Shown one piece after another: positions 1,379 to 38,749 of a stretch of 64,000 bases of DNA (positions within the stretch are counted from its first letter, which is position 1; the number at the start of each line of letters is the position of its first letter). The stretch is from an uncultured Actinomycetes bacterium (GTDB lineage: Bacteria > Actinomycetota > Coriobacteriia > Anaerosomatales > PHET01). The notes below the pieces were generated by a model, which was not told the origin of the DNA, searched no databases, and saw only the letters and a program-made list of their open reading frames with translations. The position numbers were made by a program, and so were the translations under genes. The stretch covers positions 144,404 through 208,403 of the forward strand of contig CAVYQS010000012.1 in the NCBI GenBank assembly GCA_963770765.1. Direction: 5' to 3'.

Positions 1379-2601
1379 GGCGACGTGGGTGTCCCATACA
1401 CCTTGCCGATCGCCGCGTAGACTGCGCGAGCGACGCTGTCTGACCACTGGGGGTCCTCGAAGTGATTCTCGTCCACCCGGGCTGACGCCGAGCCGAGTCT
1501 GACCCGCGCCCATGGAGCCCTCGTCGCCTGCAACACCGTGTCCGAAGTGCCACTCACGCTCTCCACCGGCGGAGCCGCTGTCGAAAGCTCACGCGTGATC
1601 TGCGCAGCGATCGCAGCAGACGGTGAGGGAAGTCCCGTCGTCGACGTGCCCTCGGTCGAAACGACTCGACCCGGGTCGCCGGTGGCGGTCACGACGAATC
1701 CGACGGCGACGGTCACGCTGGTCTCAGAGGCGAGCTTGGCCCTGTCGGCGTCCACGGTGCTGCTCGCGCCCGCGGCGCGTAGCATCGTGACCTCGGCACC
1801 GGAGGCCTCCAGCAGTGCGCGCAGGCGACGAGCAACCTCCATCGGAACATCAGGCGCACCGGTGGCCGGAGGAGCGGCGTCGATGACGACGCCTATGCCC
1901 TTGAGACGGTAGGGCTGGAGCGCCACGCCGGGCGAGCTCGATGTGGCGACCTGGACACGAACGCTGTCGCCGGTCCGGACGATGGCGCCCGCGGCGGGAG
2001 TGGTCGACAGGACGGTGTCGCTCGCGGTGTCGGAGACGACCTGTTCCACGATGACCACGAGACCGCGCGCCTCGAGAGTGCCCCTCGCCAAAGTGAGGCC
2101 GTCACCCACGACATCGGGCATCGGGAACTCCTCGCTTCCTCCGGAGATCACCAGACTGACGGTGTCTCCACGCTGGAGCTGGGTCGCCGGAGCGGGGTCC
2201 TGCGCGAGCACCTGGTCGCGCGGCTCCGTCGAGAATCGCCTCTCGGCGACCTCGACCTGCAGCCCCACCTGTTCCAAGCGAGCGCGTGCGACACCCAGGC
2301 TCTCACCGGTCACATCAGGAACGGCTACTCGAGCAAGTGACGCCGCGGTGACGACCCCGGCCACCACGAGTGCAAGCACCGTCGCCGCGATGCCGACACC
2401 GAACCACACGCTCGTCGGCACGAGCGGCGGCCGTGTGGGCCGGACACGCGAAACGGCGGGCAGCTCGGGGAAGTGAGTGGTCTCGTCGGCGGGACGATCG
2501 ACCGGACCGGGCACGGGGACAGCGGCGTCAGAGAGGTCGGCCAGCCATGAGCCGCTCTCTTCGCCTTGGTCGTCTTCGATCGGTTTCTTGTCTTCAGTCA
2601 T
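1375..2601 (-). CDS. Membrane protein with 2 PASTA domains and a degenerate Amidase_3-like C-terminal domain
   Basis: One TM helix, PASTA repeats (VPDVTG, MPDVVG), then 'GVVIDA...VARRLRALLEASGAEVTMLR...DRAKLA', an amidase-fold signature without Zn ligands. Confidence 0.75.
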   Translation of the reverse strand: MTEDKKPIEDDQGEESGSWLADLSDAAVPVPGPVDRPADETTHFPELPAVSRVRPTRPPLVPTSVWFGVGIAATVLALVVAGVVTAASLARVAVPDVTGESLGVARARLEQVGLQVEVAERRFSTEPRDQVLAQDPAPATQLQRGDTVSLVISGGSEEFPMPDVVGDGLTLARGTLEARGLVVIVEQVVSDTASDTVLSTTPAAGAIVRTGDSVRVQVATSSSPGVALQPYRLKGIGVVIDAAPPATGAPDVPMEVARRLRALLEASGAEVTMLRAAGASSTVDADRAKLASETSVTVAVGFVVTATGDPGRVVSTEGTSTTGLPSPSAAIAAQITRELSTAAPPVESVSGTSDTVLQATRAPWARVRLGSASARVDENHFEDPQWSDSVARAVYAAIGKVYGTPTSP

Positions 2602-3048: not shown

Positions 3049-3116
3049 CTGTCTCACGCGAACGAGCGCGCCAGCGTCGAAACGATCAAAGACCGAGCGC
3101 GCACACGGCGAAGACG

Positions 3117-4082
3117 TCAGTCCATGCGGACCCAGAACTTCTCGTCGCCGGTCCGATAGATGGTGTCGATGAAGCGGACCGTCTTCGACTTCGCGTCCAT
3201 GGCCACCGAGTTCGTGCGCGCGCCGGAGCCGAAGTACTTGACGCCGCGCAGCATCTCACCGTCGGTCACGCCGGTGGCGATGAACGCCGCCTCATCGGTG
3301 TTGACGAGACAGTCCATCGTGAGGACGTCGTCGATGTTGCAGGTGCCCATATCGACGGCGCGCGCCTTCTCCTCGTCGCTGCGCCATTCGAAGCGGCCCA
3401 TGAAGCATCCGCCGATGCACTTCATGGCTGCGCACGCGAGAACGCCTTCAGGCGCCGCTCCGATGCCGAGATAGAGGTGTATACCCGTGCCCTCGATCGC
3501 GGTGGCGACCGCCCCGAACACGTCACCATCGGTTATCAGACGGATGCGGGCGCCCGCGGCTCGTACCTCGGAGATCAGGTCGACGTGACGCTCTCGTTCG
3601 AGGATGCATACCACCATATCCTCGACGTCGCGCTTCAGCGCCTTGGCGACGTTGCGGATGTTCTCCGTGGGGCTCGCGTCGATGTGCACGGCAGTGGCGG
3701 CGTCGGGGCCCACCGCGATCTTGTTCATGTACGTGTCCGGCGCGTGCAGCAGCGAGCCGTGAGGACCGAAGGCGAGAACCGCAAGCGAGTTCGACTGACC
3801 ATAGGCGGTCAGGTTGGTGCCTTCAAGAGGATCGACGGCGATATCGATCTGCTCACCGCCGGCCCCTACCTTCTCGCCGATGAAGAGCATGGGTGCTTCG
3901 TCTCGCTCACCCTCGCCGATGACGATGGTGCCGTCGATCTCGACCTCGTTGAAGGCGGAGCGCATGCCTTCAACCGCTGCGTCGTCGGCAGCGTGCTTGT
4001 CGCCCTTACCCATCCAGCGTCCAGCCGCCAAGGCGGCAGCTTCGGTGACCTCGAGCATCTCGACGATTCTTGTGCTGCGCAC
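3117..4082 (-). CDS. glpX: Class II fructose-1,6-bisphosphatase
   Basis: VIGEGERDEAPML, DIAVDPLEGT and ATGVTDG motifs; GTG start after GGGGAG. Confidence 0.95.
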   Translation of the reverse strand: MRSTRIVEMLEVTEAAALAAGRWMGKGDKHAADDAAVEGMRSAFNEVEIDGTIVIGEGERDEAPMLFIGEKVGAGGEQIDIAVDPLEGTNLTAYGQSNSLAVLAFGPHGSLLHAPDTYMNKIAVGPDAATAVHIDASPTENIRNVAKALKRDVEDMVVCILERERHVDLISEVRAAGARIRLITDGDVFGAVATAIEGTGIHLYLGIGAAPEGVLACAAMKCIGGCFMGRFEWRSDEEKARAVDMGTCNIDDVLTMDCLVNTDEAAFIATGVTDGEMLRGVKYFGSGARTNSVAMDAKSKTVRFIDTIYRTGDEKFWVRMD

Positions 4083-13037: not shown

Positions 13038-13113
13038 AGGGGTATGGTGTAACTGGCAACACGCCGGATTCTGGTTCCGGAGAGTCTAGGTTCGAGCCCT
13101 AGTACCCCTGCCA
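13038..13113 (+). tRNA. tRNA-Gln(CTG)
   Basis: Cloverleaf with acceptor AGGGGTA/TACCCCT, anticodon loop TT-CTG-GT, T-loop TTCGAGC and encoded CCA. Confidence 0.97.
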
Positions 13114-13117
13114 GCAT

Positions 13118-13194
13118 GGCCCGTTCGTCTAGCGGTTTAGGACACCGCCCTCTCAAGGCGGAGATCACGGGTTCGAATCCCGTACGGGCTACCA
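13118..13194 (+). tRNA. tRNA-Glu(CTC)
   Basis: Acceptor GGCCCGT/ACGGGCT, anticodon loop CT-CTC-AA, T-loop TTCGAAT and encoded CCA. Confidence 0.97.
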
Positions 13195-15074: not shown

Positions 15075-15416
15075 GGAGTGGGCCAGACGGCCGCGTGCCT
15101 TCAGGGGCATGAGGAAAGTCGGGGCTCCACTGGGCAGAGTGCCTGCTAACGGCAGGGCGCGGCGACGCGACGGAAAGTGCCACAGAAAAGAAGACTCCCC
15201 CGCCTCTTGGCGGGAGAAAAGCTGAAACGGTGCGGTAAGAGCGCACCAGCGTCACGGTAACGTGGCGGCTTGGCAAACCCCACTCGGAGCAAGGGCAAAT
15301 AGGTGCGGTCAAGGCTGGCCCGGCCGGCGCACGGGTATGCCCGCTTGAGGCGCACGGCGACGTGCGTCCCAGATAGATGGTCGTCCACGACAGAACCCCG
15401 CTTACCGGCCCACTCC
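15075..15416 (+). ncRNA. rnpB: RNase P RNA (type A)
   Basis: GAGGAAAGTC, GAAAGTGCCACAGAAA, GGTAAGAG, GGCAAACCCC..GGAGCAAG and ACAGAACCCCGCTTA. P1 is GGAGTGGGCC/GGCCCACTCC. P4 carries a compensatory pair swap (GTCGGGG/CCCCGC). Confidence 0.97.
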
Positions 15417-15426
15417 CTCGCAAGCG

Positions 15427-21490: not shown

Positions 21491-22750
21491 ATGTCGACCG
21501 ATCCCACACATGCATGCGAGAGCGCTCCTTGGACCGGGCGGGCGATCCTGCACGTGGATCTGGACGCCTTCTTCGCGGCAGTCGAACAGCTCGACCACCC
21601 GGAGTACCGCGGCAGGCCTGTCATCGTGGGTGGCGACCCTGCTCGGCGGGGCGTCGTATCGACCTGCAGCTACGAAGCACGGGAGTTCGGTGTGCGCTCG
21701 GCGATGCCGTCAGCGCGCGCCGCACAGCTGTGCCCGCACGCGATCTGGGCCGCTCCCCATTTCGGCCGGTACCGCGAGATGTCGCAGGCGGTCTTCGCGA
21801 TCTTCCGCGATCACACCCCTCACGTGCAGCCGGTCTCGGTCGATGAGGCGTTCCTCGACGTGACCCAGGGGTCGTTCGCCGCCGAGCATCCGGTGGCGAT
21901 CGCTCGGCACATCCGTTCGAAAGTCGCCGAGCTGGGCCTCACTGCTTCGGTTGGCGTGGCGACGTCCAAGACCGTCGCGAAGATCGCCTCGGATCACGAC
22001 AAACCCGACGGGCTGACGATCGTATGCCCCGGAAACGAGGCCGAGTTCCTCGCTCCGTTGCCGGTGCGCGATATGAGCGGTATCGGCCCCAAGACCGCCG
22101 AGAGGCTCTCGACGTTGGGGGTCCGCACCCTCGGTGCGCTCGCCGCGTTGGACGAATCGACCGCGCGCGAGATCCTGGGGAGCCACGGGCCCGGCCTCGT
22201 GCTCCGCGCACGCGGCATCGACGAGCGGTCGGTGCGCGACAACGACCCGGTGAAGTCTGTGTCGAACGAGAGAACGTTCGCAACCGATGTCCGCCTCCCG
22301 AAAGAGGTCCACGGCGCACTCGACACGCTCGCCGCGAAGGTCGGCCGACGGCTGCGTCGCAAGGAGCTGGCGGGAAGGACGGTCACCGTCAAACTGCGCT
22401 TCTCGGACTTCACCACCAAGACCGTCCGCCGGACGCTTGAGTGCGCGACCGACGACGAACTGGTCTTCGGGGCGGTCGCTCGCCAGCTGCTCGGTGAGGC
22501 CTGGTCTCCCGGAATCGGACTGCGGCTGCTCGGCGTGGGTGTCTCCGGGTTCGAGGAGCGCGCCATCCAGCTCGGCTTGCTCGGCTCGGCCGAAGATGAT
22601 CCGGAGTCGGAGTCCACGGGCTCCCCACGCTCTCGTGAGGGACTTGTTCGTGGAATCGACGCCGTTCGCGAGCGCTTCGGAGACGACGCGGTCACCTTCG
22701 GTCGCGACCTTCGGGCCCGGCGCGACACCGGCACGCCCAAGCGAGACTAG
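21491..22750 (+). CDS. dinB: DNA polymerase IV (Y family), catalytic motifs intact
   Basis: HVDLDAFFAAVEQ, SYEAR, SVDEAFLD and AKIASD..KPDG. Confidence 0.95.
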   Translation: MSTDPTHACESAPWTGRAILHVDLDAFFAAVEQLDHPEYRGRPVIVGGDPARRGVVSTCSYEAREFGVRSAMPSARAAQLCPHAIWAAPHFGRYREMSQAVFAIFRDHTPHVQPVSVDEAFLDVTQGSFAAEHPVAIARHIRSKVAELGLTASVGVATSKTVAKIASDHDKPDGLTIVCPGNEAEFLAPLPVRDMSGIGPKTAERLSTLGVRTLGALAALDESTAREILGSHGPGLVLRARGIDERSVRDNDPVKSVSNERTFATDVRLPKEVHGALDTLAAKVGRRLRRKELAGRTVTVKLRFSDFTTKTVRRTLECATDDELVFGAVARQLLGEAWSPGIGLRLLGVGVSGFEERAIQLGLLGSAEDDPESESTGSPRSREGLVRGIDAVRERFGDDAVTFGRDLRARRDTGTPKRD

Positions 22751-25700
22751 CCTCCCCTTGTCCCCCAGCTCGCACGTTCCTCGGCGGCATAGGCCTGTGC
22801 AGCCGCCCAGCTCTCCTCTTCGGGTGCCCCCGCCCCGCCAAGCATCGGTCCCATCGGCCCGCTCGGAACACCCCGCCGCAACCTCACCGGAACACCCGAG
22901 GTGGTTCGCACGACATACGGCTGTACGTCATTGGCGACGATCGCAAGCCCTCGTTCACAGTTGTTCTGCAGCGTGCCATCGATGAGATAGGAGCGGTGCT
23001 TCACGATCACGTCACCCACCCGTGAGAGCGTGTCCGAGAAGACCACCACGTCGAGCAGGCCGGTGGGATCTTCGAGGGTGAGAAAGCACGTTCGCTTCCC
23101 CGAGCGGGTCCTCGGTGTCTGGGCGCGCTCGCGAACCCCGCACACACGCACCTTCGCGCGGTCCGGAAGCTCACGCAGATCACGGGCCCACGTGACCCCC
23201 CGGGCCTCGAGGTCGCCGGCGGCAAGAGCGAGCGGGTGGTCGGTGAGCGACAGCCCCACCAGCTCGAGCTCCGCGGAGAGCCGTCGCGCGGGCCCCCAAC
23301 CGCTGACATGACCGGGGTCCTCGGCCGGGCGTACCGGTGCGGGCGCCAGGCAGAGCACATCATCACCGGCGCTTCCCTCGCGAGCAAGGACCGCCTTGAC
23401 CTCGGGAAGCAACGCGAGAAGCTCGTCGCGTGTGGGGGGGCGCCCGGCCTCGGTGATTCCGAGCCCGTCGAGCGCACCGATGCGGATGAGGGACTCGGCG
23501 GCCGACAGTTCCGCCCTCGTTCGACGCAGGAAATCGGTGAGATCGCGAAAAGGCCTCACCGCGCGTTCGCGCGGCACCATATCGAGCAGGCGCGACGTCA
23601 TCTCGTGAACATCCTTCAGGCCCACCCTGATCGCGGCACCTTGCTGCTCGACGGTATACCGCGCCTCGCTCGCATTGATGTGCGGCGGGAGGATGCCGAT
23701 ACCGTGGCGACGGGCGTCGTTGACGATGAGACGTGGCGTATAGAACCCCATGGGCTCGTTGTTGAGGATCGCCGTCGCGAACTCAGCCGGATAGTACGTG
23801 CGCAACCACGCGCTCGCATAACTCACCACCGCGAAACAAGCAGCATGGGCCTTGTTGAAACCGTAGGCCGCAAAACCCTCGAGCTGCCGGAAGACCTCGG
23901 CCGCGACCTCGGAGTCGACTCCCCTGGCAAGTGCCCGCTCCAAGAAGTGGCCACGGATGCGCTCCATCTCCTCCCGGCTGCGCCCTTTGGTCATCGCCCG
24001 CCTGAGCGAGTCCGCCTCGGCAAGATCGAAACCGGCAACGGCGCGCGCGACCAACAAGACCTGCTCCTGGTAGACGATCACGCCATAGGAATCCGCAAGG
24101 CACTCGCGCATAGCTTCGTGCGGCACGGTGACCGGCTCGAGACCGTGGCGACGCCTGATGAAGGGGGTGATCATCTCGGCTTCGAGCGGACCGGGACGGA
24201 AGAGTGATATCTGGGCGATGATGTCTTCGAACCGGTTTGACTTAAGGCGCGTGGAGAGGTTGCGCTGGCCGCTGCTCTCGAGCTGGAACATCCCCACGGT
24301 GTCCGCCGCCGAGATCTGCTCGTAGACCCGCGGGTCGTCCGGGGAAAGTCCGAACGGTTCGGGTACTGCAGCCTCGCCGACCCGCGCTCGTGCGAGATCG
24401 ACGGCCTCGCTGATCGCCGAGTGCATCCTGAGCCCCAAGATGTCCATCTTCACCAGTCCGAGGGCCTCGATATCGTCTTTGTCGTACTGGGAGACGACCG
24501 TACCCTTGGCCGCCCACTGCAGCGGCGTCCAGCTTGCGACCGGTTCGCGGGTGATGATGAATCCACCGAGGTGTGTCCCGAGATGGGTGGGCGTGTGATC
24601 GAACTGCTCGGCGATCTCAAGGACACCCGCGTAGCGCGGGTCGTGCAGCGGGTGGTCCCGGCATTCGGGGTACTCGGAAAGCACCTCGCGGATCTTATGC
24701 GCGCTCACCCACGGCAGGTGGCGCGAAAGGGAGTTGACCTCTGCGATCGGCAGCCCGAAGGCGCGTGCGGCGATGCGCACCGCATTTCGGGCGGTGGTGG
24801 TCTGGATGGTGGCGACCATCGCGACGTGTTCGTGGCCGAACCGGCCGTAGATGAAGTCGATGATCTCGTCTCGGCGAGCCGAGTCGAAGTCCACGTCGAT
24901 GTCGGGCATCTGGCGGCGCTCGGGATTGAGGAACCGCTCGAACAGCAGATCGTGGCGGACCGGATCCGCATCGGTGATGCCCAGCGCGTAGCTCACGATG
25001 CTGTCGCCGGCACTACCCCGACCCGAACAGCGGATGCCCTGACTCTTGGCGAAGTCAACGATCTCCTTGACCACCAGGAAATATTCGGGAAAACCCATCT
25101 GCTCGATGAGTGCCAGCTCATGCTGCAGACGACGGATCGCCTCGGGTGTCATGGGGGCATAGCGCCGCTCGAGCCCCCGCCACGACTCCTTGGCAAGCGC
25201 CGAGTAGGACGTCTCGCCCGCCGGGATATCGGCGCCCGGGAAGTGGAACTGCCCGAGCGGGAGTTCGAACTCCGCACAGCGAGCTGCGATCTCGAGCGTC
25301 GCATCGCAGGCGCGCTCGACACCACAGAACAACTGCCGCATCGCTGCACCGGGCTTGAGCCACAGTTCCGCATTGGGCCGGTCGTGGGGCCCGGGCAACG
25401 TCATGCACGCACCGGTCGATGCAAGCACGTCGTGGATGCGGTGATCTTTGGCGCGCAGGTAATGGACGTTGTTGGTGGCGACGACCGGCAGATGCAGGTC
25501 CTGAGCTGCCGAGACGAGCCCACTGACCAACCGCGGCGCCTCAACGGTCATGGGATGCACAAGCTCGACGTAGAAGGCCTCCTGCTCGAAACAGCGCGCA
25601 AGCCGCCTCAGCGCCGAGCGGGCACGACCCGGTTTGGCGGACCCGACCGCCCGGGCAGCTTCGCCGTTGCCGCACCCTGAAAGTCCGATCAGCCCCTGTG

Positions 25701-26139
25701 AGAACTGCTCCAGGTCGCGAAGCCGGACGATGCTGGGTAGGTCGGGACCACGCAGATGGGTGCGGGACAGCAGCCGGCACAGGTTGCGGTAGCCTTCGAA
25801 ATCTCGAGCGAGCAACGTGAGGTGGAACCCCGCACCCGATGCCCGCCCGAAACCCGCGGCAGGCGGCAGCTCCAAGCGGGCATCGACCGGGAGGTCGGTT
25901 TCCTCACCGCACAGCCCGGCGGTCTCGACCACCACCTCGCAACCGATGATGGGGGCTATCCCCTCTTTGCGGCAGGCCTTGTAGAACCGGATCGCGCCCG
26001 AAAGCCCTTGGTGATCAGTGAGTGCGATAGCGGGCATCTCGAGTTCTGCCGCTCGCGTCACAAGCGCGTCGAGCGGGCAGGCCCCGTCCATGAAGCTGAA
26101 GTTCGAGTGGGTATGCAGATGCACGAATCCGGCTGACAT
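22747..26139 (-). CDS. dnaE2: Error-prone DNA polymerase III alpha subunit (DnaE2/ImuC)
   Basis: PHP HLHTHS, RGSAGDS, MPDIDVDF, THLGGF, QYDKDDIEALGLVKMDILGLRM, short OB-fold C-terminus; LexA box upstream. Confidence 0.88.
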   Translation of the reverse strand: MSAGFVHLHTHSNFSFMDGACPLDALVTRAAELEMPAIALTDHQGLSGAIRFYKACRKEGIAPIIGCEVVVETAGLCGEETDLPVDARLELPPAAGFGRASGAGFHLTLLARDFEGYRNLCRLLSRTHLRGPDLPSIVRLRDLEQFSQGLIGLSGCGNGEAARAVGSAKPGRARSALRRLARCFEQEAFYVELVHPMTVEAPRLVSGLVSAAQDLHLPVVATNNVHYLRAKDHRIHDVLASTGACMTLPGPHDRPNAELWLKPGAAMRQLFCGVERACDATLEIAARCAEFELPLGQFHFPGADIPAGETSYSALAKESWRGLERRYAPMTPEAIRRLQHELALIEQMGFPEYFLVVKEIVDFAKSQGIRCSGRGSAGDSIVSYALGITDADPVRHDLLFERFLNPERRQMPDIDVDFDSARRDEIIDFIYGRFGHEHVAMVATIQTTTARNAVRIAARAFGLPIAEVNSLSRHLPWVSAHKIREVLSEYPECRDHPLHDPRYAGVLEIAEQFDHTPTHLGTHLGGFIITREPVASWTPLQWAAKGTVVSQYDKDDIEALGLVKMDILGLRMHSAISEAVDLARARVGEAAVPEPFGLSPDDPRVYEQISAADTVGMFQLESSGQRNLSTRLKSNRFEDIIAQISLFRPGPLEAEMITPFIRRRHGLEPVTVPHEAMRECLADSYGVIVYQEQVLLVARAVAGFDLAEADSLRRAMTKGRSREEMERIRGHFLERALARGVDSEVAAEVFRQLEGFAAYGFNKAHAACFAVVSYASAWLRTYYPAEFATAILNNEPMGFYTPRLIVNDARRHGIGILPPHINASEARYTVEQQGAAIRVGLKDVHEMTSRLLDMVPRERAVRPFRDLTDFLRRTRAELSAAESLIRIGALDGLGITEAGRPPTRDELLALLPEVKAVLAREGSAGDDVLCLAPAPVRPAEDPGHVSGWGPARRLSAELELVGLSLTDHPLALAAGDLEARGVTWARDLRELPDRAKVRVCGVRERAQTPRTRSGKRTCFLTLEDPTGLLDVVVFSDTLSRVGDVIVKHRSYLIDGTLQNNCERGLAIVANDVQPYVVRTTSGVPVRLRRGVPSGPMGPMLGGAGAPEEESWAAAQAYAAEERASWGTRGG

Positions 26140-26152
26140 GATCTGCTCGCGC

Positions 26153-26569
26153 CTAGTCTTGGATGCCGACGAGCAGCCACACGCCGTCGGCGCGATCGAA
26201 AGCGAGATCGTAGATTCCCCCACGCGCGAGCACGCGGAAGAATCGGCGAGCTATGCGTGTGCGCGGGTCCCACCAGCTCTTCTCGGTGGCCCAGACCTGG
26301 ATGATGGCGTCCACCCGGTAGCGTTTGGGGCCCCTCACGAACGCCGAGGGGCACTGACGCCGCGCGTCCCACTCCACCGCTACCGGCTCGTTGGTGCGCC
26401 GCGCGACGGAAGCGCCGTCCTTGCGCAGGATCTCGGAAGCCCGGACGATCCAGGGGCTCTTGAGCAGCTCGATGATGACCGGAAGCCGCGCCCGCCTGGT
26501 CTCGAAAAGCTCCATGGGCTGCCCTGTCGGAGTCGAGTCATAGTGCTTTATCGCCGAGTTGCGGCCCAC
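26153..26569 (-). CDS. DUF6504-like small protein co-transcribed with dnaE2
   Basis: 'P.AF...RYRV..I...W.....WW......R.FFRV.....YDL.FD.....W.L....D' pattern; GGGAGG RBS before GTG 26569. Family assignment from memory. Confidence 0.7.
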   Translation of the reverse strand: MGRNSAIKHYDSTPTGQPMELFETRRARLPVIIELLKSPWIVRASEILRKDGASVARRTNEPVAVEWDARRQCPSAFVRGPKRYRVDAIIQVWATEKSWWDPRTRIARRFFRVLARGGIYDLAFDRADGVWLLVGIQD

Positions 26570-26634
26570 GGTCACCTCCCACATCCTGTGCGTCTTCCTG
26601 CCACCTTGCGCGACCCGATGGGCGCGCTTCTACT

Positions 26635-26715: not shown

Positions 26716-27369
26716 CTACGCAGGACGAACGTCACCCACGGTCACGAATCGCGCGACATCGCGTCCGAGCGCTCGCGTCGCTCCGGCGACCTCCACGGTC
26801 AGCGGCCCGTCGAACGGCTCCGCTGCAGCAACGCGCACGACCGCGCCGGGCTTGAGCCCGATGGTGCCCAGGTAACCGAGCACCTCCTCGTCCTCGGCGA
26901 CACGCAGGACCCGTGCCGAGAAGCCCGGCTCGACGCTGTCGAGCGACTCCCCGATCGCCACAGAGACCGAACCGTCCGCTGCGGGGATGGGGTGACCATG
27001 CGGACACACGGTGGGATCACCGAGATAGCGCTCGAGGGCCTCGAGCACCCGCGGGGACATCGCGTGCTCGAGCAGACAGGCATCTTCGTGAGCGGCTTCC
27101 CAATCCAAGCCCAACACATCGACCAAGAAGCGCTCGGCGATCCGGTGCTTTCGCACGACCTCCACGGAGCGCGCCTCCCCCTCGGCGGTCAGGACGACCC
27201 CGGTGCCATCGCGGCTGATCAGGCCGTGGGACTCGAGGCGCTTGAGCGTCGCTGTGACGGTGGGACCCGAAACGCCCATGAAATCGGCGATCTGGGTGGG
27301 TCGAACGACGCCCGCGCCGGAGAGCTTGTAGATGGTCTCGAGGTACTCCTCGAGGGTGGTCGTGGGCAT
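26716..27369 (-). CDS. DtxR/MntR-family metal-dependent repressor with FeoA domain
   Basis: EEYLETIY, wHTH, RKHRIAERFL, HEDACLLEH, CPHGHPIP and C-terminal FeoA domain. Confidence 0.93.
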   Translation of the reverse strand: MPTTTLEEYLETIYKLSGAGVVRPTQIADFMGVSGPTVTATLKRLESHGLISRDGTGVVLTAEGEARSVEVVRKHRIAERFLVDVLGLDWEAAHEDACLLEHAMSPRVLEALERYLGDPTVCPHGHPIPAADGSVSVAIGESLDSVEPGFSARVLRVAEDEEVLGYLGTIGLKPGAVVRVAAAEPFDGPLTVEVAGATRALGRDVARFVTVGDVRPA

Positions 27370-27478
27370 CCGCCATATCCTTCTCGCAGGGGGAAGTCAG
27401 GGTGCACCGCACACGATAACACTGCAACGAACCCGCCACGGAACCAGCCCCGACCGCTTGGTAGCATAGAATCCGCTC

Positions 27479-27498
27479 AACGGTAGTCAACTACCGTT
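27479..27498. promoter_or_regulatory. 9-2-9 perfect inverted repeat over the -35 of the regulator's promoter (putative operator)
   Basis: AACGGTAGT-CA-ACTACCGTT; minus strand TTGACT-16-TATGCT. Confidence 0.6.
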
Positions 27499-27552
27499 CA
27501 AAAACCCAGAGCTACCTTTCAGCAGGAATCCGCGCAATTCCTCCAAAACGCG

Positions 27553-27581
27553 TTGACACACCGATACGTGAAGGGTAGATT
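27553..27581 (+). promoter_or_regulatory. Sigma70-type promoter of an orphan ncRNA
   Basis: TTGACA-17 bp-TAGATT. Confidence 0.8.
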
Positions 27582-27587
27582 CCTTTT

Positions 27588-27788
27588 GTCCCCAGAAGTC
27601 GGACGCAGCGAGACTCCGGAAAGACGGTCACCAGTAGCCGCCGGAGAGGGTACCGAGAAGCGAAGCAGGCCGCGAGGTGGCTAAGCGATCCGGGAGCCTC
27701 GAAGGAGGGAAACCCGAAAGGGACGCCGCGCAAGTGGCGAGGGAGCCGGTTGTTTATGGAGAGCCTTGCGGGCGAGGTTTCTGGGGAC
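27588..27788 (+). ncRNA. Unidentified ~200-nt structured non-coding RNA
   Basis: 5' GUCCCCAGAAG pairs with 3' UUUCUGGGGAC; several internal tetraloop hairpins; own promoter and terminator; no credible ORF. Confidence 0.75.
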
Positions 27789-27794
27789 ACCTCT

Positions 27795-27827
27795 ATGCCC
27801 AGACAGATGACGTCTGGGCATCTTCGT
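27795..27827 (+). terminator. Terminator hairpin after the ncRNA, convergent with queD
   Basis: ATGCCCAGAC-agatgac-GTCTGGGCAT then CTTCGT. Confidence 0.7.
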
Positions 27828-27860
27828 GTCGTGGCCTCCTGAACCCGTTCCCGCCGAAAC

Positions 27861-28232
27861 CTACGGCCGGTACGCCAGCTTCGCGATCGGCGACTCCCAC
27901 ACGACGACCTCACTGACCCGGACGCGCGGATCGACGATCTGCTGCAACCGGTCACAGATCACCCGCGCGAGGTTCTCGGCGGTGGGGCTCACAGAGTCGA
28001 ACGGCTCGACCTCGTTGATGAGCACGTGGTCGTAGCGCTCCAAGACCGCGGCCAGGTCCGCCTTGAGCGCCTTGAAGTCGTAGACGATCCCGATCTCGTC
28101 GAGGTGGCTCCCCGCGACAGTCACCTCGACGTCCCACGTGTGCCCGTGCAGGTTGCGGCATTCACCCGGATAGCCGTACAGGTGATGCGCAGCGTCGAAG
28201 TGACCCTTGACGGTGAGTTCGTAGGTTCCCAT
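27861..28232 (-). CDS. queD: 6-carboxy-5,6,7,8-tetrahydropterin synthase
   Basis: FDAAH, CRNLHGH, DH..IN, PTAENLA and WES motifs. Confidence 0.93.
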   Translation of the reverse strand: MGTYELTVKGHFDAAHHLYGYPGECRNLHGHTWDVEVTVAGSHLDEIGIVYDFKALKADLAAVLERYDHVLINEVEPFDSVSPTAENLARVICDRLQQIVDPRVRVSEVVVWESPIAKLAYRP

Positions 28233-38533: not shown

Positions 38534-38543
38534 GAAGCGACCT

Positions 38544-38657
38544 TCCTTCTCCCATCCGGACTATGACCGTCGGCTCCGGAGTCTCACCGGATCGGCCCCT
38601 TTCGGGGTTCGCGGGCTGTAACCGCCGGTGGGGAATCTCACCCCGCCCTGAAGAAAG
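38544..38657 (-). ncRNA. FMN riboswitch (translational; P1 overlaps the SD of ribD)
   Basis: UUCAGGGCGGGGUGAGAUUCCCCACCGGCGGU...AGCCCGCGA...GAUCCGGUGAGACUCCGGAGCCGACGGUCAUAGUCCGGAUGGGAGAAG. Confidence 0.97.
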
Positions 38658-38749
38658 CGATTCGGAGTTTACCACACAGAGCACCTGCGCAGCCGCGCCG
38701 CGGGACGCGTTCGAGCCAGCGTGCAGCGCGGTCGCGGTTCTCCCTCGAG

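Follow-up and report, generated by a model that had tools for sequence, protein, structure and literature searches.

6S RNA (ssrS, RF00013) is a stand-alone RNA of rod-like shape, whose ends are paired in a long closing stem, and some bacteria have two 6S RNAs. Bacterial Y RNA, the partner of Ro (Rsr), combines a long end-to-end stem with a conserved sequence and a stand-alone gene. At the level of single loops, the sarcin-ricin/loop E motif (bulged-G, S-turn) of 23S and 5S rRNA, with its signature AGUA/GAA, is a common protein-binding platform. Finally, the raiA motif RNA of Actinomycetota is described in PMC10861870 as an orphan, conserved RNA of about 200 nt, usually made as its own transcript, whose mechanism is unsolved.

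The RNA described here resembles each of these systems in some respects. It is encoded in a 64,000-nucleotide stretch of DNA (the window, meaning the whole stretch that was analysed) from an uncultured actinobacterium, probably of the order Anaerosomatales (OPB41) in Coriobacteriia. As judged from the sequence, positions 27588-27790 of the plus strand are a real gene that stands alone, under its own promoter, and encodes a folded non-coding RNA of about 200 bases. The family to which it belongs is described in no database; the core proposal of the first-pass annotation, that of a free-standing structured RNA outside the described classes, holds. With the raiA motif RNA it shares the length of about 200 nt and the status of an orphan, highly conserved structured RNA, but the sequence and the fold are different. 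It has the end-to-end stem, the sequence conservation and the stand-alone gene of Y RNA, but no Rfam match and no tRNA-like module, and no Ro gene was found in the genome. The likeness to sarcin-ricin/loop E is at the motif level only, AGUA opposite GAA(A); the difference is that this family has three such loops in tandem within a small rod, and that the third one is of 5x4 nt. The comparison with 6S RNA is given below, together with other possible functions.

Gene and transcription signals

The signals, the structural elements and the flanking genes are listed in Table 1. The near-consensus promoter proposed in the first-pass annotation was recovered by a promoter scan of the region, which produced two sites against 0.2 expected. 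The distance from the -10 box to the closing helix is 6-7 nt, and this helix indeed lies at the predicted transcription start; it has 13 base pairs and an additional pair U27587-A27789. All 36 aligned copies from the order (including extra copies from family f19) keep TTG in the -35 box and TA...T in the -10 box without exception, both at a fixed distance from helix P1, and a further conserved stretch is seen upstream of the promoter. TTGAC is invariant in 11 out of 11 copies from both classes in which the family occurs. In the second, low-G+C class the promoter consists of TTGACA, a 17-18-nt spacer and a TAnAAT-like box, and is preceded by an A/T-rich element.

The plus strand of 27588-27790 (203 nt) folds with a free energy of -92.7 kcal/mol (z-score -4.22; none of 200 shuffled sequences folds as well), compared to a z-score of only -1.80 for the minus strand. 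Within P1, G-U and U-G pairs that never vary also fix the strand.

The 3' end is less uniform. A terminator had been predicted immediately behind the 3' strand of the closing helix. The hairpin is present (10 bp, -17.5 kcal/mol, z-score -2.1), but a terminator scan found no terminators in the region and did not call this hairpin, since its T-run is too weak. The pyrimidine-rich tail is retained in the G+C-rich order, with the consensus ACACCUCUAUUCUC, and in many copies it is followed by a separate further hairpin, as in the window. In the low-G+C class a U-rich run directly follows P1, and thus P1 together with this tract looks like an intrinsic terminator; the tails there are long and strongly terminator-like. 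A likeness of the tail to the 3' end of 16S rRNA was dropped, as copies from the other class have nothing but a run of U residues at this place. The next gene downstream is queD on the minus strand, so no gene follows the RNA on its own strand, as had been noted.

Table 1. Features of the RNA gene and its flanks (window coordinates)
Feature	Position	Strand	Comment
DtxR/FeoA-type repressor gene	26716-27369	-	divergent from the RNA, on one side of the gap
Sigma-70-type promoter TTGACA-17-TAGATT	27553-27581	+	promoter scan, 10/12 matches
P1, 5' strand GUCCCCAGAAGUC	27588-27600	+	partner strand 27776-27788; 61 distinct sequences have 99.9% of cells paired
P2 and P3, 5' strands CGC, GC, AG, then CUCC	27604-27617	+	pair with 27758-27774
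Internal loop 1, 5' side GGAAAGA (family consensus GAAAG)	27618-27624	+	opposite 27749-27757
P4 (CGG), loop 2 5' side (UCA; consensus GUA), P5 (CC)	27625-27632	+	P4 pairs with 27746-27748
Internal loop 3, 5' side AGUAG	27633-27637	+	best-conserved unpaired element
Apical arm: P6 (CC.CC/GG..GG), P7 (GAGG/CCUC), variable purine-rich region, P9, P10	27638-27709	+	
GCGA tetraloop capping P10	27672-27675	+	
Loop 3, 3' side (AAA ... A), split by an insertion of two GNRA hairpins	27710-27740	+	
3' strands of P5, loop 2 (GAG), P4, loop 1 (GUUGUUUAU), P3, P2, P1	27741-27788	+	
3' tail ACCUCUAU, 10-bp hairpin 27795-27821, then CUUCGUGU	27789-27827	+	likely transcript end
queD/PTPS	27861-28232	-	convergent with the RNA, on the other side of the gap

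A coding function was rejected. Three diverse members have no shared reading frame over the RNA: the frames do not exceed 64 aa and differ in strand and frame, so the conserved translated frame that would speak against a non-coding RNA is not seen there. A 147-aa frame overlapping the RNA in the window has no match in Pfam. Close relatives of the window RNA differ from it by gaps of one and two nucleotides. A mobile element was rejected as well, as searches of phage and plasmid collections gave no match to the RNA. A scan of viral contigs with the core motif produced 17 pattern matches; none of the 17 matches covariance model R2 (see below), and the nine that were aligned resemble a phage protein gene, so they are not members of the family. 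The locus thus has what is generally expected of a stand-alone non-coding RNA: a promoter, a 3' end and a conserved, covarying structure without a conserved reading frame.

Secondary structure

The core of the family is an unbranched rod with three conserved purine-rich internal loops. It consists of approximately 165-175 nt and is capped by a GNRA tetraloop, and model R2 has no branch points. From the base upwards, the order of elements is P1 (13-14 bp), P2, P3, loop 1, P4 (4-5 bp), loop 2, P5 (CC/GG), loop 3, P6, P7, a variable region and the terminal hairpin with the GNRA loop. The conserved pairings, besides this terminal hairpin, include ACGG with CCG(G), GCCGCC with GGAGGG, and GAGG with CCUC.

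This structure is supported by covariation in homologues. In an alignment of 61 distinct sequences (A3), 91.6% of cells are paired, compared with 34.8-50.7% in controls where the partners were slid by 1-3 columns. Changes on both sides are observed in 34 of 53 pairs and in 300 cells, versus 24-55 cells in the slid controls, and none of 500 shuffles reaches any of these measures. As A3 was fitted to the structure of the covariance model, MAFFT and RNAalifold were also applied to a diverse set of 25 sequences (12 of the order, 13 of the second class), in an alignment that was not fitted to the model (A10). The result is a matching rod of 37 pairs, and compensatory changes are seen in 24 of these. 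One P6 pair in this alignment reads GC 12, UA 8, CG 2, AU 1, and all four Watson-Crick pair types occur at 54/126 in the apical arm.

In P1, pair 8/219 is GC in 54 sequences, AU in 4 and CG in 3, and pair 12/215 is AU in 37, GC in 13 and GU in 10. Ten of the eleven pairs in helices 2-4, which make up P2 and P3, change on both sides, e.g. 32/193 (CG 29, UA 22). In P4, pair 44/178 is GC in 30 sequences, AU in 23, CG in 3 and UA in 2. P5 is invariant in all 61 sequences. Covarying pairs of the apical arm are 61/131 (CG 52, UA 9), 58/135 (UA 23, CG 21) and 92/99 (CG 24, GC 24, AU 6, GU 5). A home-made search for further covariation beyond this structure, pseudoknots included, produced only noise.

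The residues that are invariant or nearly so in both classes are confined to the three central loops, the tetraloop and P1. The consensus of the central loops is GAAAG opposite AGUA (loop 1), GUA opposite GAA (loop 2) and AGUAG opposite GAAA (loop 3); they are stacked, being separated by helices of 4 bp and 2 bp. G31, A32 and A34 of loop 1 are nearly invariant across both classes, and the motif ACCAG.AG around loop 3 is invariant or nearly so in the family alignments. The window RNA departs from the consensus in loop 1 (GUUGUUUAU instead of ..GAGUA) and in loop 2 (UCA/GAG instead of GUA/GAA), which means that these two loops tolerate change.

The branched interior proposed in the first-pass annotation is not supported. 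The outer part of that model is correct: the closing stem does continue by CGC/GCG, GC/GC, AG/CU and CUCC/GGAG. However, for four interior helices, CCG-GAAAGA-CGG, UAGCCGCC/GGUGGCUA, CCUC-GAAG-GAGG and the CCGG/CCGG closure, only 57.3% of cells pair in the 61 distinct homologues, and 457 of 500 shuffles are as good; the alignment used in this test was fitted to the rival rod structure and thus favours it. Two of the three tetraloop hairpins, CCC-GAAA-GGG and CGCCGC-GCAA-GUGGCG, do exist; the third, CCUC-GAAG-GAGG, is among the four unsupported helices. The two existing hairpins (27713-27722 and 27724-27739) form an insertion found in 13 of the 61 distinct sequences and absent from the rest of the family. 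Three of the six pairs in the second one change on both sides. The branch of the compact fold suggested at first pass is this insertion, while the core of the family is an unbranched rod, so that this suggestion does not hold.

Distribution

The RNA family is common to two deep groups of mostly uncultured actinobacteria. BLASTN identified one copy in each of 30 out of 41 related genomes, and a covariance model (R1) built from 20 sequences extended this to 67 of 151 genomes of the class, counting the window's own. All 67 belong to the order of the window, where 66 of the 67 other genomes sampled match and only one (G019) does not, whereas no match was found in any of the 83 genomes from the other orders of the class (families f24-f30). 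The search among relatives suggested at first pass returned homologues in almost all sampled genomes of the order.

A pattern scan of named genomes yielded at least 120 stretches; among the matches listed, the labels are Coriobacteriia, Anaerosomatales, unclassified Actinomycetota or Actinobacteria metagenome-assembled genomes and a few Eubacteriales. A broader model (R2) was built from 62 copies. In a 150-genome sample of the phylum it detected full-length matches in seven further genomes, all from one other class, and one weak partial match (28.8 bits). In this second class, with the G+C content of 41-57%, R2 matches 27 of 48 genomes and 22 of the 31 high-quality ones; these counts should be read with the understanding that covariance-model E-values are rough and that the sampled genomes are not mutually independent.

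Family f19 of the order has two or three copies of the RNA per genome, some of them in tandem at distances of about 590 or 1600 nt. One example is locus L055 with copies at 2501-2672 and 3094-3265, and tandem copies are also seen in L056, L058 and L059. In the aligned tandem pairs, the stretches upstream of the two copies are identical or differ by one or two bases, which indicates recent duplication. A second, degenerate copy with altered central loops was observed in locus L209 (1501-1660, plus strand, 45.3 bits), approximately 500 nt upstream of a T-box leader (2159-2419, plus strand) and an anthranilate synthase gene.

Comparison with known RNA families

No Rfam 15 family matches the 27588-27790 RNA at the gathering threshold. 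When the threshold was relaxed to E<=10, the only match within 27400-27900 was a chance one, archaeal sRNA41 over the promoter region. The copies from the low-G+C class do not match any Rfam family either. Literature searches did not reveal a description of this RNA, and a term search in PMC11109978 found no mention; the motif lists in the supplements of the discovery papers from the Breaker laboratory and Weinberg could in principle include it.

Several particular families were rejected, and most of them have genuine representatives elsewhere in the same genome. SRP RNA (RF00169, RF01854) does not match here and is found on another contig (68.1 and 63.4 bits); tmRNA (RF00023) is absent here and is found elsewhere with 144 bits. 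This agrees with the absence of SRP and tmRNA hallmarks noted before. A true raiA RNA (RF03072) also resides elsewhere in the genome (158.7 bits), with no match at this locus. RNase P RNA, reported to start at 15075, was confirmed at 15075-15420. The window also contains an FMN riboswitch at 38540-38659 on the minus strand (114.1 bits, well over the cut-off) and two adjoining tRNA genes at 13038-13110 and 13118-13191 on the plus strand.

For other types of RNA the protein partner was sought in the genome, which is 97.7% complete. The abundance of GGA had suggested a protein sponge. This suggestion was abandoned: no CsrA gene (PF02599), as required for a CsrB-type sponge, was found, and the GGA-rich, purine-rich stretch belongs to the variable part of the family. 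No TROVE/Ro gene (PF05731) was found, which speaks against a Y RNA. No Hfq gene was found either, so that an Hfq-dependent small RNA loses support.

Genomic context

Among 30 loci of the order, the RNA gene has a divergently transcribed dtxR-type gene upstream of it in 28 and a convergent queD gene downstream in 29. The distance between the 3' end of the RNA and the stop codon of queD is 28-117 nt in these loci. Behind queD there are genes for an RNase H-like protein (RVT_3), a CT398-like zinc-ribbon protein and NIF3. On the other flank in the window, upstream of dtxR, a DUF6504 gene (26153-26584, minus strand) adjoins a frame of 1158 aa (22747-26223, minus strand).

In family f19, nine of 20 loci have this dtxR/queD setting, seven are downstream of gatB, two are beside a gene for a PEP-utilising enzyme and two are elsewhere. 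In the other class, the genes RVT_3, queD and cobA are convergent with the RNA in all three loci of family f35, and queD is convergent with it in family f82. In family f54, the order UbiD, RNA, cation-efflux gene, RVT_3 is seen in three of four loci, and the layouts in the remaining families of this class are different. In locus L202 an RNase P RNA gene (1970-2427, plus strand, 282 bits) is located 300 nt from an RNA gene of the f35 type and is divergent from it.

Thus the position of the RNA near the end of the RNase H/queD operon is old, and no single downstream gene on the same strand has been kept. This speaks against a riboswitch or another cis-regulatory leader, in agreement with the first-pass annotation: all but one of the 30 loci of the order are followed by queD on the opposite strand, and the other copies have varied neighbours.

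The gap contains a perfect palindrome of 9+9 nt (AACGGTAGT..ACTACCGTT, 27479-27498). It covers the -35 box of the promoter on the dtxR side, and this position makes it a candidate operator for autoregulation by the DtxR-type repressor. Only three of 235 loci show the pattern GGTAG-4-CTACC, and two of these are from the window genome itself. A DtxR-type operator on the promoter of the RNA is not supported, as the only palindrome is this one, on the dtxR side.

Possible functions

For a gene whose strand, promoter, structure and conservation are established, and for which the known families are excluded, our best guess at the function is a stable protein-docking RNA. In its full form, this reading is that of a stable RNA from a new family, transcribed on its own and acting in trans, which presents a predicted docking platform; we assign it a probability of about 0.5. 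Transcription would start at approximately 27588 from the strong sigma-70-type promoter, and the two ends would pair in the 13-14-bp clamp of P1. P1 and the pyrimidine- or U-rich tract, here with an extra hairpin, probably end the transcript, so that P1 would serve both as the clamp and as the stem of the terminator. The result may be a stable, abundant RNA presenting a rigid docking surface.

The surface would be formed by the three central loops, which we take to be sarcin-ricin/loop E-like (S-turn) by the AGUA/GAA signature. This signature is present in the consensus of loops 1 and 3, and loop 2 has GUA/GAA, with the window's own loops 1 and 2 deviating; the register of loop 3 is 5x4 nt, compared with 4x3 in the classic motif. 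Loops 1 and 3 have the same sequence pair in opposite orientation around loop 2, hence the arrangement has a rough two-fold symmetry. We infer docking from the invariance of P1, the tetraloop and the central loops, from the protein-binding role of the motif and from this symmetry. The partner might be a protein, possibly a dimer, or alternatively a component of the machinery for transcription or translation. The variable apical arm and the two inserted hairpins would then be spacers or decorations. A more far-reaching version, in which the RNA is a subunit of a new ribonucleoprotein ancestral to deep-branching anaerobic Actinomycetota, with the triple S-turn read by a dimer or by such machinery, is tentative.

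Several observations weigh against docking: the 5x4 register of loop 3, the departure of the window's own loops 1 and 2 from the consensus, and the convergent position relative to queD in both classes, which could indicate a role in antisense transcription or termination rather than in trans. According to the latter explanation the RNA is a conditional terminator or an antisense regulator, whose fold responds to a ligand or macromolecule. Without a properly formed P1, transcription would continue into the convergent operon queD-RNase H-CT398-NIF3 in the antisense direction or, at other copies, into the downstream genes in the sense direction. The U-rich tract directly behind P1, the proximity of the 3' end to the stop codon of queD and the convergent layout in two classes are consistent with it, and so are transporter genes downstream on the same strand, encoding a cation-efflux protein in the f54 loci mentioned above and an MFS/ATG22-like protein in three of 20 f19 loci. 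However, the downstream gene family is inconsistent, the extra f19 copies reside in unrelated contexts such as those near gatB and the PEP-utilising enzyme gene, and no alternative, anti-terminator pairing is seen. Moreover, the strongly terminator-like tails of the low-G+C class and the further hairpin of many copies in the order argue against conditional termination, which we consider rather unlikely.

It had also been proposed that the RNA could be an analogue of 6S RNA or Ms1. A second, highly divergent RNA of this type, binding RNA polymerase, would explain the length of about 170-205 nt, the rod with paired ends and the strong promoter of the kind seen at stable RNA genes, and the existence of bacteria with two 6S RNAs makes it conceivable. 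But RF00013 has no match in 27400-27900 even at E<=10, and canonical 6S RNA coexists with the family: of 41 genomes from the order, 37 have a match, 21 of these over the cut-off (best score 87.5 bits), and in the window genome it is found in full length elsewhere on the window's own contig 12 (285538-285713 of the contig, minus strand, outside the window) with 45.9 bits versus the cut-off of 46.4. The centre of the rod does not fit either. Instead of a large open bubble, with 12-15 nt per strand, the largest internal loop of the core has 5-9 nt per side and is flanked by the covarying P4 and the invariant P5. Hence we regard a 6S-like function as unlikely, and the original proposal is not retained. 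As a separate observation, 16 of the 37 matches to 6S RNA in the relatives score under the Rfam cut-off, and thus standard annotation would miss 6S RNA in many genomes of the order.

The divergent DtxR/FeoA-type repressor gene, present in almost all loci of the order, suggests another role, that of a base-pairing small RNA, perhaps linked to metal homeostasis by way of the divergent dtxR-feoB genes, with mRNAs as the targets of its single-stranded tail or loops. Divergent pairs of a regulator gene and a small RNA gene are a known layout, and the pyrimidine-rich tail is kept in the order. Nevertheless, the conserved unpaired residues belong to short purine-rich internal loops and do not form an accessible seed; the other class has a simple run of U residues in place of this tail, and dtxR is not among the neighbours examined there. 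The only palindrome of the gap sits on the dtxR-side promoter, some 100 nt upstream of where the RNA begins, and no Hfq gene was found, as noted above. We find it quite improbable.

A protein-free RNA, that is, a self-assembling multimer or a ribozyme, could account for the GNRA tetraloops on the rod and the inserted hairpins and for the very high conservation of helices and loops alike, but it is very unlikely, since the scan of column pairs found no covarying tetraloop receptor or pseudoknot and the inserted hairpins are lineage-specific.

Implications

Nearly all members of one order of subsurface Coriobacteriia have the RNA, and in a second class it is common. To our knowledge, there are few classes of large structured RNA that are kept across whole bacterial orders, and each one that has been solved opened a field. 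Were the ribonucleoprotein reading true, this would be a new housekeeping-type class, comparable in rank to 6S or Y RNA, with one to three copies per genome. The near-universal occurrence, the strong promoters of the stable-RNA type and the near-invariant core make it very likely that the RNA plays an important role in its lineages. The lineages that carry it are almost entirely uncultured. According to PMC9686372, the order now has cultivated isolates, and therefore the function of the RNA can be tested directly.
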